This document shows, in pieces, positions 5,260 through 14,200 of a stretch of 64,000 bases of DNA. The position numbers are program-made. The DNA lies in the NCBI RefSeq assembly GCF_016026235.1, contig NZ_CP065614.1. The stretch is one strand, 5' to 3'. The first letter of the stretch is position 1. Every line of letters begins with the position of its first letter. Source of the stretch: Escherichia coli. Lineage in GTDB: Bacteria > Pseudomonadota > Gammaproteobacteria > Enterobacterales > Enterobacteriaceae.

Positions 5260-8200
5260 TGACCACTTCAGCGGGCCAGCGCAGAGCGCAGGAAGGCCTC
5301 CGTCTCTTCAACCAGACTCAGTTGCTGGTCTTTCTGACGGAGCAGGCTTTCCAGTTCTGCAATGCGAATGAGGTATTTCTGACTCATGGCCGTTTTTATA
5401 ATCCGGCCATGACATTTTTACAACATTGTCAGTGCATTAAGGCGGGATGTTTTTGGCTGACGCCAGTCCAGCTTATCGAGGAGCATTGCCAGTTGCGAGC
5501 GGGTAATTGATATTTTACCGTCACGCACCGCAGGCCAGATAAACTGGCCTTCCTCCAGGCGTTTGGTGAACAGGCACAGACCATCAGCATCAGCCCAGAG
5601 GATTTTAATCATGTCACCCCGTCAGCCACGGAAGATGAACAGGTGACCGGAGAAGGGGGTCTCATCCAGCACATGCTGTATCTGCTCTCCCAGACCGTTG
5701 AAGGATTTACGCATATCGGTAACGCCGGCAATGAGCCAGATGCGGGTGCCTGACGGGAGTGAGATCATCTTCCCCTCACGGTCAGTTCCCGGACCAACAC
5801 CGTGAGCAGCTCTGGTGAAGGATTTTCCAGCGTCATGTTGCCGTGACGGAATGATTGACCGCATTGACGCCAGAGTATTTGCTCAGATGACTGAAGTCAT
5901 TAATTGTATTAGCTCAGACCTGATCTGACTGATACCGGTTATTTATACAGGGATCTGCCCGATGCCATCGTCAGGTTCTTACCCCATAACTAATTGAGCC
6001 CCATGAGACCTGTACTGGCGGGACATCTGATGTTTAAAATTTATAATGCTCCTTACTAAGACCGTATTTTTTCATTCTGAGATAGAGTTTTTTCCGCGGG
6101 ATTTGTAAATATTCAGCAACCTCATTGATACGCCCCTGATGGATATTAAGCGCCTCTGTGATTATCTGTCGCTCAGCGTCCTCCACTCGTCTGTCAAGCG
6201 GTGTCGGGGTTCCGACGTGCATCAACGGATTTGCTGTTTCTGCCAGCGGTAATACTCCTACAGTAAACAGTTCTGCTGCATTGGCCAGCTCTCGCACATT
6301 ATTTGGCCACATGCGGCGCATCATCTCTTTGAGCATCTCTTTTCCCACTTCCGGAACAGGATGGTTAAGTCGTTGACATGCTTTACAAAGGTAATGGCGA
6401 AACAGTGGTTCAATATCATCGGGGCGTTGAGCTAATGGCAGGCAAGCGATTTGTGTCATTGCAAAGCAGTAATAGAGCTCCGCGATGATATGGTTGCTGG
6501 CGACCAGCTCGACCAGCGAGGTGTCTCCAATACCAATCAGGCGAAAAGGTCTGTGTTCCTGGCTTTGTAACTGAACCAGATGGTACTGCTGTTCACGCGT
6601 CAGGTGTTCAGGATGGCTGAGCACTAATGTTCCCCCCTGAGCCAGCGCAATGAAATCATTAAGCTGTAGTGCATTGTCTGGTGTCAGCTCGCGGTAGACA
6701 AATTCGCCTTGTGCATTACGTCCAAATTGGTGCAGATAACGTGCACCGGTCATCCGTCCTGTGCCTGGGGCCCCGTAGAGCCAGACGGCAATATCTGTTT
6801 CAGACAACTGCTGTAAACGTCGCCGATACTGATTTATCCATTCACTTCTCCCTATCAACTCCACCTGCAACGTCTGTTGGCAATACTGACGACGCGCAAT
6901 GATTGATTGACGCTGGCGTAGCGCCTCTTCAACCAGAGAAAGCAATTTGCCGGGATCAACCGGTTTTTGCAAAAAATCCCACGCGCCTTTTTTTACCGCA
7001 TCAACTGCCATTGGCACGTCGCCGTGCCCGGTGATAAGCAGAATGGGGATCTGTTGATCATCCTGGTGGAATAACATCATCAAATCGATACCAGAGCAGC
7101 CAGGCATACACACATCACTTAGCACAATACCTGGCCAGTCTGGTTGTATCCACGCCTGCGCCTCAAAAGGATTGTTACAGGCAAAAACCCGATAGCCTGA
7201 CTGTTCAAGTAATTGTGTGTAGGCGTCCAGCACGTCAGCATCATCATCAATCAGCAGAATCGAATATTCACTACTTAGCATCTTCCACATCCGTTAGTCT
7301 GAATTGCAGTACCACACAGGCATTCCTGGTCATCGTTGATGCCAGCCGTAATTCCCCTTTCATTTGCTCCATCAACGACACACAAATTGAAAGACCAATA
7401 CCCAGTCCTACTTCTTTACTGGTGGTAAACGGCTTCAATAACGAAGGCAACAATGCCTCAGGCCAGCCCGGGCCATTATCGCCAATGAATATGTTCAGCG
7501 TTTTACCCTGCATTTGCCAGTTAACGGTAATGACAGCGCCTTGCCCACAAACATCAAGCGCATTCGCCAGTACGTTAACCAGTACCTGCTGGGTTCTGAC
7601 CTCATCGCCTGAAACTGTGGCTGTACCTTGCGGCAGAACAAGCGTAGCTTGCAGAGGGCGATGACGCATGGCCAGAAGTTCCCAGGCCGCACTGAACATC
7701 TGTGCTAAATCAACGGCATGGAGTAATGTTTCCAGTTCGGCGCGCCGGGTAAACTGCCGTAGTGAACGGATAATGGCGTCAATGCGACCAATCACCCCTT
7801 CGGCTTTACCAAGCATCATGCTGGCCTGTTCTGTCTGGGTCTGTTCAATGGCCCTGCGGGCTGTAAACAGATACATCGACAGCGCATTTAGCGGCTGATT
7901 GATCTCGTGGGCCAGCGTGGTCATCGTTTGCCCGACTACCGCCAGCTTCGCTGTCTGAATCAGTTCGTCCTGGGTGGCGCGCAGATCGGCTTCTATCACC
8001 TTTCGATCGGTAATTTCTTGTTCAAGTTGCTGTTTTTGCACATTGAGCTGCCCGAGAGTATGGCGTAATAATCCTGCAATTCTCCCCAATTCATCATTCC
8101 CATAAACAGGAATAGTCGTTTCCGTGCCTCCCAGGCCAATTTGCACAACGGCCTGATTCAGTAGGGCAAAGCGTTTCACCAACCGTGAGCGGATAAAATA

Positions 8201-11200: not shown

Positions 11201-14200
11201 GTGGCCATCACCAGTTCATTTCGTTGAGCCCTGACGGCCCTGGCATCCATCAGCAGCAGTAAAAGAATCATGGTTTTGATGCCGATTTCGCACCAGCTAA
11301 AAAATCGGTTTGTGATCCAGGTCATAAATATTAATACACCGCAAAAATCGCATTGAGACAAAAATTACCCGTTACAGACACTTCATCTGATAACACGTCT
11401 GCTCAAAGAGACCGTTAATATATTAATCAGAGATTACCCGATAATCAGCATGAGATTTGTTAATATCCGCACATGCTAACAATAAAACAGATAAAGCATA
11501 AATCTATCCTGTCTATGCATCAATAAAATGGGTCAAAAACAGGCTTTGATTTTATTATTTTGTGTCAATTGTGACACATTTTTTCAGTTTGATGTTTCAT
11601 CTCAATTATATGACTCTCATTGCCAGAATTCTCTTGATGTTCATATCAATATAAAATACAGGTGAAGACATGTTATCAATATTTAAAACGGTGCAAGCGG
11701 CGGATAGTGTTCCGGCGGAGAAAATTCAGGTGACATATCATCGCTATCGTATGCAAGCGTTACTTAGCGTATTTCTGGGGTATCTTGCATACTATATCGT
11801 GCGTAATAATTTCACCTTATCGACGCCTTATCTTAAAGAGCAATTAGATCTCAGCGCCACACAAATTGGCGTACTGAGTAGCTGTATGCTTATCGCCTAT
11901 GGTATCAGCAAAGGAGTGATGAGTAGCCTTGCCGATAAAGCCAGTCCGAAAGTCTTTATGGCGTGTGGGCTGGTGTTATGTGCCATCGTTAACGTTGGCC
12001 TGGGATTCAGCACCGCATTCTGGATTTTTGCGGCATTGGTTATTCTGAATGGTCTTTTCCAGGGAATGGGCGTTGGTCCTTCTTTCATCACTATTGCTAA
12101 CTGGTTCCCTCGCCGGGAGCGTGGTCGGGTTGGTGCTTTCTGGAATATCTCTCATAACGTCGGTGGTGGTATTGTTGCACCGATTGTTGGTGCCGCTTTT
12201 GCCCTACTCGGCAGCGAGCACTGGCAAAGTGCGAGCTATATCGTTCCGGCCTGCGTGGCCATCGTTTTTGCGGTAATTGTGCTAATTCTCGGTAAAGGTT
12301 CCCCACGTCAGGAAGGTCTGCCCTCGCTGGAAGAGATGATGCCGGAAGAAAAAGTCGTCCTGAATACCCGACAGACGGTAAAAGCACCAGAAAACATGAG
12401 CGCCTTTCAGATTTTCTGCACTTATGTATTACGCAACAAAAATGCCTGGTATGTCTCACTGGTTGACGTATTTGTATACATGGTGCGCTTCGGGATGATT
12501 AGCTGGTTGCCTATTTATCTGCTGACGGTGAAACATTTTTCTAAAGAACAAATGAGCGTCGCGTTTTTATTTTTTGAATGGGCCGCAATCCCTTCCACGC
12601 TACTTGCCGGTTGGTTGTCAGACAAACTGTTTAAAGGGCGTCGTATGCCATTGGCGATGATTTGTATGGCGCTGATTTTCATTTGCCTGATTGGCTACTG
12701 GAAAAGTGAATCGCTGTTTATGGTGACAATTTTTGCTGCCATTGTTGGTTGTCTGATTTACGTTCCACAATTTCTGGCTTCTGTTCAGACTATGGAGATC
12801 GTGCCCAGCTTTGCTGTTGGCTCCGCGGTAGGTTTACGTGGTTTTATGAGCTATATCTTCGGTGCATCTCTGGGCACCAGCCTGTTTGGTATTATGGTCG
12901 ATCATATTGGCTGGCATGGCGGATTTTATCTTCTTGGCTGCGGTATTATTTGTTGCATCATTTTTTGCTGGTTATCACATCGTGGTGCAATTGAACTTGA
13001 ACGTCACAGAGCCGCATATATAAAAGAACACTGATTACCGTCCCCAGGGGCGTTTCCCTGGGGAGTGGAGCATCTTATGATTTATAAGATATCTGGCAAT
13101 CAGAAATTAATATGGAAATTTTATAAAACTGAACCGCCCCGGGAATCCTGGAGACCAAACATCCTGAGAAAGAGGTAAACAGGATGACTAAAAATACTCG
13201 TTTTTCCCCCGAAGTCCGTCAACGGGCAGTCCGTATGGTTCTGGAAAGTCAGGGCGAATATGACTCACAGTGGGCGGCAATTTGTTCCATTGCTCCAAAG
13301 ATTGGCTGTACACCGGAGACTCTGCGTGTCTGGGTACGCCAGCATGAGCGGGATACCGGAGGCGGTGATGGCGGGCTCACCACCGCTGAACGTCAGCGTC
13401 TGAAAGAGCTGGAACGTGAAAATCGTGAACTGCGCCGCAGTAACGATATCCTTCGCCAGGCTTCCGCTTATTTTGCGAAGGCGGAGTTCGACCGCCTCTG
13501 GAAAAAATAATGCCACTGCTGGATAAGCTGCGTGAGCAGTACGGGGTCGGACCGCTATGCAGCGAACTGCATATTGCCCCGTCAACGTATTACCACTGTC
13601 AGCAACAGCGACATCATCCGGATAAACGCAGTGCCCGTGCGCAGCGCGATGAGTGGCTGAAGAAAGAGATACAGCGCGTATACGATGAAAATCACAAGGT
13701 ATACGGTGTAAAGTCTGGCGTCAGTTGTTACGGGAAGGTATCAGAGTGGCCAGATGCACTGTGGCACGTCTCATGGCGGTTATGGGACTTGCCGGTGTTC
13801 TCCGGGGTAAAAAGGTCCGTACGACCATCAGCCGGAAAGCCGTTGCCGCAGGCGACCGCGTAAACCGTCAGTTCGTGGCAGAACATCCTGACCAGCTGTG
13901 GGTGGCTGATTTTACTTACGTCAGCACATGGCAGGGGTGGCGTTCATCATTGATGTGTTTGCCGGATACATCGTGGGGTGGCGGGCCTCATCGTCCATGG
14001 AAACGACATTCGTGCTGGATGCTCTGGAGCAGGCGTTATGGGCCCGTCGACCGTCCGGCACAGTCCATCACAGTGATAAAGGTTCTCAGTATGTATCGCT
14101 GGCCTACACACAGCGGCTTAAGGAAGCCGGATTACTGGCATCAACAGGAAGTACAGGCGACTCGTATGACAACGCGATGGCGGAGAGCATCAATGGTCTT

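Follow-up and report, generated by a model that had tools for sequence, protein, structure and literature searches.

The window analysed here is a 64-kb stretch (64,000 nucleotides) of Escherichia coli contig NZ_CP065614.1, which carries at positions 6034-13034 a pgt locus where pgtP diverges from the minus-strand genes pgtA, pgtB, and pgtC. The original prediction had recognized a pgt-type phosphoglycerate transport locus with the gene order of Salmonella, in which pgtC is split by a copy of the insertion sequence (IS) IS1. A mechanical listing of open reading frames (ORFs) on the minus strand returns an NtrC-type regulator (6034-7290), a histidine kinase (7271-9280), and two fragments resembling a solute-binding protein (SBP; 9277-10065 and 10933-11361). 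The features of the locus, in window coordinates, are:

6034..7281, minus strand: pgtA, NtrC-type response regulator, intact, 415 amino acids from MLSSEYS (the mechanical ORF reaches 7290)
7271..9280, minus strand: pgtB, membrane sensor histidine kinase, intact, 669 amino acids
9277..10169, minus strand: 3' fragment of pgtC, from the last two bases of codon 112 through the stop
10161..10169: left copy of the target-site duplication, CGGAGGTTG, abutting the IS1 end
10170..10937, minus strand (same orientation as pgtC): IS1, exactly 768 bp, bases read and counted
10170-10192 and 10915-10937: terminal inverted repeats of IS1
10185-10688, minus strand: insB', intact, 167 amino acids, matching NCBIfam NF033558 (IS1 transposase)
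10607-10882, minus strand: insA, intact, 91 amino acids, matching the same NCBIfam model
10625-10631: A6C programmed frameshift motif, element position 307
10938..10946: right copy of the target-site duplication, CGGAGGTTG, abutting the IS1 end
10933..11271, minus strand: 5' fragment of pgtC, codons 1-111 and then an end supplied by IS1 (alternative upstream start at 11325)
11272..11669, no strand: divergent intergenic control region between pgtC and pgtP, uninterrupted, colinear and gap-free relative to intact loci
11670..13034, plus strand: pgtP, organophosphate:phosphate antiporter of the major facilitator superfamily (MFS), intact, 454 amino acids

IS1 lies after the first base of pgtC codon 112. 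The 9-bp CGGAGGTTG is a perfect repeat that occurs exactly twice in the window, each copy touching one end of the element, and a repeat search recovered the inverted arms as 24-nt segments (10169-10192 and 10915-10938) that are 88% complementary. No second IS1 copy was found in the 64-kb window. As had been predicted, IS1 entered by simple transposition and duplicated 9 bp of target; the lesion is of a textbook kind. An IS1-mediated adjacent deletion, a cointegrate, and a composite transposon were also considered; the contiguous flanks, the gap-free alignment to intact alleles, and the single IS1 copy rule them out.

The insertion leaves 111 native PgtC residues of ~405 (about a quarter), followed by a glycine and a TAA stop (10933-10935) that comes from the IS1 end, such that translation terminates after ESIRTTSG. 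No in-frame start leading out of IS1 into the 3' part of pgtC was found, and a product of the 3' fragment would be without a signal peptide. Removing positions 10170-10946 in silico (IS1 plus one copy of the repeat) restores a single continuous pgtC ORF of 405 codons. The correct join is 9277..10169 with 10947..11271 (1218 nt), extending to 11325 for the 423-amino-acid start used in some annotations. The original prediction had proposed joining 9277..10168 to 10937..11285; the two halves do form a continuous PgtC homologue, but that 1241-nt join keeps the repeat and is out of frame.

The rebuilt 6524-bp locus aligns without gaps to two plasmids that carry the uninterrupted allele, with 4 mismatches to the FDAARGOS_945 plasmid (NZ_CP065612.1) and 9 mismatches to plasmid pCFSAN029787_01 (NZ_CP011417.1) of enteroinvasive E. 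coli (EIEC) O96:H19. RefSeq annotates pgtA, pgtB, pgtC, and pgtP as intact in both. The full-length PgtA, PgtB, and PgtP of the window, intact as had been predicted, are identical to the proteins of the FDAARGOS_945 plasmid, and pgtA has no nucleotide difference. PgtP is also identical to that of pCFSAN029787_01, from which PgtB differs by S519L and the rebuilt PgtC by 4 residues relative to the RefSeq pgtC product. Two substitutions are private to the window lineage, G11R and L295F, both nonsynonymous and both in pgtC. All 4 nucleotide differences from the FDAARGOS_945 plasmid also fall in pgtC (9612, 10999, 11210, and 11241), with none elsewhere in the locus. This clustering has P ~0.001 under a uniform spread, but because two of the four differences sit on the branch of the other plasmid, it may be taken as only a weak hint of relaxed constraint on pgtC. 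The earlier description of the insertion as recent is reasonable, given that the IS1 is 100% identical to an IS1 on Shigella flexneri plasmid NZ_CP026812.1, the duplication is perfect, the pgtC halves contain no indels, and only the two private substitutions have accrued.

The distribution of the pgtC::IS1 allele bears on whether the insertion is real. Repeat misassembly could place IS1 in pgtC, as the element is highly repeated (a median of ~10 places per E. coli genome) and the junctions are rare in the databases: with 201-bp queries, no record spanning either IS1-pgtC junction was found among PLSDB plasmids or 5426 complete E. coli genomes, and scanning metagenome contigs for the exact 27-nt junction yielded 0 matches. 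The allele was located in other records through the protein index only, where a 296-amino-acid partial PgtC that begins exactly at the insertion point is annotated in E. coli O124 records. Two independent 279-kb contigs cover the whole insertion and cross IS1 at the same position, JARKNJ010000031.1 with 1 mismatch in 7365 bases and JAALAC010000001.1 with 5 mismatches in 5768 bases. A 4894-bp draft contig, represented in 8 samples, matches window positions 5274-10167 at 100% identity, shares all local single-nucleotide polymorphisms, and ends 2 nt before IS1, as expected of a short-read assembly that meets a repeat. Together with the perfect duplication placed exactly at both ends of the element, these records make an assembly artefact exceedingly improbable. 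Therefore, we conclude that pgtC::IS1 is a real allele common to a small lineage, for which the records name E. coli O124.

The locus encodes a known Pgt system. Three of the four proteins exceed the NCBIfam equivalog cutoffs (650 bits for PgtA, 1000 for PgtB, and 750 for PgtP): PgtA matches NF047793 with 728 bits over profile positions 1-414 of 414, PgtB matches NF047794 with 1069 bits and end-to-end profile coverage, and PgtP matches NF047787 with 884 bits over positions 1-448 of 451. NCBIfam contains no PgtC model. The rebuilt PgtC has the Pfam domains SBP_bac_6 and SBP_bac_11, its nearest solved structures, at low scores, are periplasmic binding proteins of the FbpA/SfuA type, and it shares 80 to 91% identity with E. 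coli, Klebsiella, and Citrobacter proteins that bear the name PgtC. Homologue lists and cluster look-ups for PgtC contained entries from Klebsiella, Citrobacter, Pseudocitrobacter, and others, none of them named for Salmonella. The Salmonella comparison was made via the locus of S. enterica subsp. diarizonae from a scan of one genome per species, to which identities are 81% (PgtA), 82% (PgtB), 84% (PgtC), and 91% (PgtP), confirming the predicted resemblance of the transporter to PgtP. That scan recovered PgtP relatives at 80 loci, and the gene order and spacing of the window, with pgtA, pgtB, and pgtC running away from a divergent pgtP, recur in ~55 Enterobacterales species representatives, S. 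enterica subsp. diarizonae included. This bears out the assignment to a pgt-type locus with Salmonella gene order, and relatives with 99.9% identity are already annotated as pgtA, pgtB, pgtC, and pgtP in RefSeq.

Two observations from the scan concern other taxa. Bacillus, Paenibacillus, and Brevibacillus (Firmicutes) encode PgtP relatives with ~70% amino acid identity and no PgtA, PgtB, or PgtC relative within 7 kb; an identity this unusually high across phyla suggests horizontal transfer of the transporter alone. In Citrobacter koseri NCTC10786, PgtB and PgtP are each matched in two abutting pieces (residues 1-280 and 280-669; residues 1-94 and 93-454), which suggests frameshifts in pgtB and pgtP or sequencing errors.

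The pgt locus is accessory in E. coli, in keeping with its presumed absence from K-12. It is present in 460 of 5426 complete genomes, at 465 chromosomal places and 9 plasmid places, with up to three places in some genomes, and 26 of the 460 contain remnants only. Among 72,556 PLSDB plasmids, the pgtP region is found in 7, all from E. coli and none from Shigella. Chromosomal modules, as in E. coli 1105 and also strain 536, are ~98.5% identical to the window, lie in pathogenicity-island-like DNA beside S/F1C fimbrial genes, and have IS remnants at their ends; their homology to the window runs from 8 bp before the pgtA stop to ~98 bp past the pgtP stop. On sequence grounds, the four genes appear to move as if they were an IS-bounded cassette.

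The window has the content of an invasion plasmid (pINV) of EIEC, with three ipaH genes, many IS elements, and a TonB-dependent receptor, and at the DNA level it is most similar to E. coli plasmids that have been named or typed as pINV. It was identified as an invasion plasmid on the basis of the three full-length ipaH genes, which encode IpaH-family E3 ubiquitin ligases, each scoring ~560 bits against a cutoff of 550, and are separated by IS4-family transposases. These genes and the boundaries of the pgt module are located as follows:

49877-51604, 56932-58629, and 60361-62085: full-length IpaH-family E3 ubiquitin ligase genes
4423..5864, no strand: left boundary, remnants of an IS3-family (IS600-like) and an IS66-family element, from ORFs and the annotation of homologous pINV regions
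13184..14383, plus strand: right boundary, IS3-family element whose transposase is frameshifted, from ORFs and a homologue annotated likewise in the VL7S7 pINV

The transposase of the right-hand element is split into three overlapping ORFs. Short-read contigs of the window lineage stop at the repeats that flank the module, and the 4894-bp draft contig ends at 5274 on this side. Beyond the right boundary, positions 14942-18502 encode a tdcA-like LysR regulator (whose mechanical N terminus is 45 residues longer) adjoining an M20 amidohydrolase, a small ORF, and a DUF3100 protein, a block kept beside the pgt module in all pINVs examined.

Other pINV-borne pgt loci carry lesions of their own:

VL7S7 pINV, window ~6880-6884: IS2 in pgtA, target duplication GCAAT
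CP119444.1 pINV, window ~6263-6265: IS600 in pgtA, target duplication GTA
CP119444.1 pINV, window 9976: 1-bp deletion (frameshift) in pgtC, no duplication
JARKNH010000035.1, window 11246-11250: IS2 in pgtC codons 8-9, target duplication ATCCA
UGFN01000002.1, window 11492-11496: IS2 in the pgtC-pgtP intergenic region, target duplication TAAAG

With the window included, pINV-borne pgt loci thus contain at least five independent IS insertions (one IS1, three IS2, and one IS600). All five are simple insertions flanked by clean target duplications, and the IS-hit loci all retain an intact pgtP. Three of the five were found by an exact-PgtP look-up, which biases the search toward intact pgtP. The indel-rich assemblies CP091385.1 and CP046677.1 were left out of the judgement of gene integrity, for which they are unreliable.

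Some of these records, and one Salmonella genome, show further rearrangements. Assembly GCA_031665295.1 contains an exact PgtP on two large contigs, one of 164 kb (JARKNH010000035.1, pgtC::IS2) and one of 278 kb with an intact locus, which could reflect a duplication, two plasmids, or a mixed culture. In JARKNH010000035.1, a second pgtP start lies ~2.9 kb downstream, past an inverted IS3-like segment. In S. enterica subsp. arizonae CCUG 6322T, a deletion joins pgtA codon ~108 to pgtC codon ~110, pgtB is gone, and pgtP is recovered as two overlapping matches. The end-point of this deletion on the pgtC side (AGGTTG) falls inside the 9-bp IS1 target site of the window (10161-10169). A link between the two was considered and rejected, since a 17-nt microhomology between pgtA and pgtC (11 of 17 matches) explains the deletion better; the shared site is probably a coincidence, with a chance of ~1%.

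According to the model for Salmonella, the sensor of external 3-phosphoglycerate (3-PG) is PgtC, which acts on the kinase/phosphatase PgtB, and PgtB in turn phosphorylates PgtA, the activator of the pgtP promoter; the divergent region, ~435 bp in Salmonella, holds both promoters (PMC11077982). The role of PgtC is taken here from the titles of papers from the Hong laboratory and the summary in a 2024 mBio article (PMC11077982). In the window, the pgtB start overlaps the pgtC stop (ATGA) and the end of pgtB overlaps the pgtA start, as read from the sequence, which implies translational coupling. IS1 insertions are strongly polar. A single transposition into codon 112 of pgtC, in a plasmid-borne pgtCBA operon, would thus remove the periplasmic sensor by truncation and would also stand between the operon promoter and the coupled pgtB and pgtA genes, with polarity on both. 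As pgtC is truncated and IS1 lies upstream of the coupled genes, we infer that the plasmid copy can no longer be induced: pgtP would be intact yet locked off, and the uptake of 3-PG, 2-phosphoglycerate (2-PG), and phosphoenolpyruvate (PEP) encoded by this locus would most likely be lost. In pgtB, pgtA, the divergent promoter region, and pgtP, the insertion has caused no change. Nothing convincing was found when a sigma-54 promoter was sought in the intergenic region, and a scan for sigma-70 promoters and terminators gave weak consensus matches only; neither outcome was counted as evidence.

Several points weigh against a silenced locus. The silencing of pgtP is deduced from the sequence and presumes that the intact E. 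coli allele would work like the Salmonella one. Weak sigma-70-like matches lie in IS1 and in the pgtC 3' fragment, downstream of the insertion, and could allow some transcription of pgtB and pgtA. The window does not include the host chromosome, from which a second, intact copy could supply PgtC in trans, with more than one pgt locus in some E. coli genomes and exact PgtP on two contigs of one assembly. A bypass is also possible in principle, as pgtB mutants of Salmonella can express pgtP without pgtC (Niu et al. 1995, reference 33 of PMC11077982, as cited there). The system might therefore still work, with PgtB and PgtA made from internal or IS1-derived promoters, PgtC chromosomal or dispensable, and pgtP inducible or constitutive; the unchanged pgtB, pgtA, pgtP, and intergenic region would suit this, as would the retention of G173 in PgtA. 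We regard continued function as improbable. The PgtB of the window agrees residue for residue with that of a plasmid whose pgtC is intact, which leaves no dedicated bypass mutation in it. The promoter matches do not rise above consensus noise (8 found versus 3.8 expected across the region), and neither an in-frame start out of IS1 nor a signal peptide on the 3' product is available to restore the sensor. A clean IS1 insertion with a likely locked-off plasmid copy, arising from IS-driven decay of an accessory module under relaxed selection, is the most economical reading, and we consider it probable.

The original prediction went further and called the decay pathoadaptive, which would mean that phosphoglycerate uptake or signalling is harmful in the intracellular life of EIEC and Shigella and that inactivation of its regulator was positively selected. 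In favour of this are the repeated disruption of pINV-borne loci, with at least five independent IS insertions and one frameshift, the absence of Shigella among the PLSDB carriers, and parallel losses at the regulator level in S. Typhi and S. Paratyphi A (PMC11077982) and in host-restricted Klebsiella sublineages. Interruptions are also more common on pINVs (3 of 13 copies) than among chromosomal copies, where a spread sample contained 1 interrupted locus among 55 full-length loci (P = 0.02, Fisher's exact test). This excess hinges on how remnants are scored, however, and vanishes once those on chromosomes are included among the losses (P = 0.15). The restriction of all hits to sites outside pgtP, which might suggest a bias toward the regulators, matches the expectation from target size (P = 0.45), and the PgtP-biased look-up supplied three of the five insertions. 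The pINV is dense in IS elements, so insertions are expected without selection, and the locus is intact in most pINVs examined. Finally, PgtP of Salmonella promotes intracellular growth or replication and virulence (PMC7873081), which argues against a general cost. These counts do not show the loss to be selected, and the pathoadaptive label is not upheld: neutral IS-driven decay on an IS-dense plasmid fits the data equally well, and we judge positive selection for loss to be unlikely. A broader version holds that inducible phosphoglycerate uptake has been switched off repeatedly in enterobacteria turning invasive and host restricted, usually via sensing or regulatory genes and not the transporter. 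The cases set beside it are the pINV IS knockouts, the absence from Shigella in PLSDB, the G173D change of S. Typhi, the pgtB pseudogene of S. Paratyphi A, the arizonae pgtC-pgtA deletion, and losses in the Klebsiella ozaenae and rhinoscleromatis lineages. This generalization is unlikely; if true, it would mean that sensing or exchange of 3-PG or PEP is costly in that niche.

The practical consequence concerns annotation. The pgtC gene of the window is best labelled an IS1-interrupted pseudogene, and metabolic models of this lineage should not credit pgtP with working uptake of 3-PG, 2-PG, or PEP. In several lineages, insertions of IS1, IS2, and IS600 are eroding the pgt module that EIEC invasion plasmids carry, and this erosion, together with the absence of the module from Shigella plasmids in PLSDB, agrees with a view of EIEC as less far along the reductive path that Shigella has taken. 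Uptake of 3-PG matters for intracellular Salmonella (PMC7873081). No literature on pgt in EIEC or on pINV was found among open-access papers, and the pgtC::IS1 allele and the recurrent IS erosion of the module appear to be undescribed, though unsurprising. The biology is ordinary: a known system with a known kind of lesion.

Gene content (four genes), order, and orientation in the window agree with pgtP/pgtABC of S. enterica, and PgtA, PgtB, and PgtP pass the equivalog cutoffs. The Salmonella locus is chromosomal, whereas that of the window lies in an IS-bounded module on an EIEC invasion plasmid and has an IS1-interrupted pgtC. The intact EIEC pINV loci (NZ_CP011417.1 and NZ_CP065612.1) are much closer, at 99.86 to 99.94% identity over the 6524 bp that remain without IS1 and one repeat. 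They share the flanks of the window, with IS66 and IS600 remnants on one side and an IS3 element, the tdcA-like regulator, and the M20 peptidase on the other. Their pgtC is uninterrupted, while that of the window carries IS1 and the private changes G11R and L295F. The other IS-disrupted pINV alleles affect the same locus in the same plasmid family but are independent events, and IS1 at codon 112 of pgtC is found only in the window lineage.

The closest functional parallel is in typhoidal Salmonella. PgtA G173D is the loss-of-function change of S. Typhi, and in both S. Typhi and S. Paratyphi A, PgtP itself still works but is silenced by the regulator lesions (PMC11077982). The window likewise combines an intact transporter with a lost regulator in an invasive, human-restricted enterobacterium and adds a plasmid-borne example to this pattern. 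The lesions differ in kind, being a chromosomal point mutation or a degraded pgtB in typhoidal Salmonella and an IS insertion in plasmid pgtC in the window, where PgtA residues E141, G173, and H223 are in the functional S. Typhimurium state. With UhpABC/UhpT of E. coli, the locus shares the scheme of an externally induced MFS organophosphate:phosphate antiporter under the control of a two-component system and a third sensor. PgtP matches the UhpT and UhpC models at subthreshold scores, and the locus is not a member of the Uhp system. The third component also sets the two apart: the sensor UhpC is a membrane MFS protein, whereas PgtC is a periplasmic SBP-like protein of the FbpA/SfuA type.

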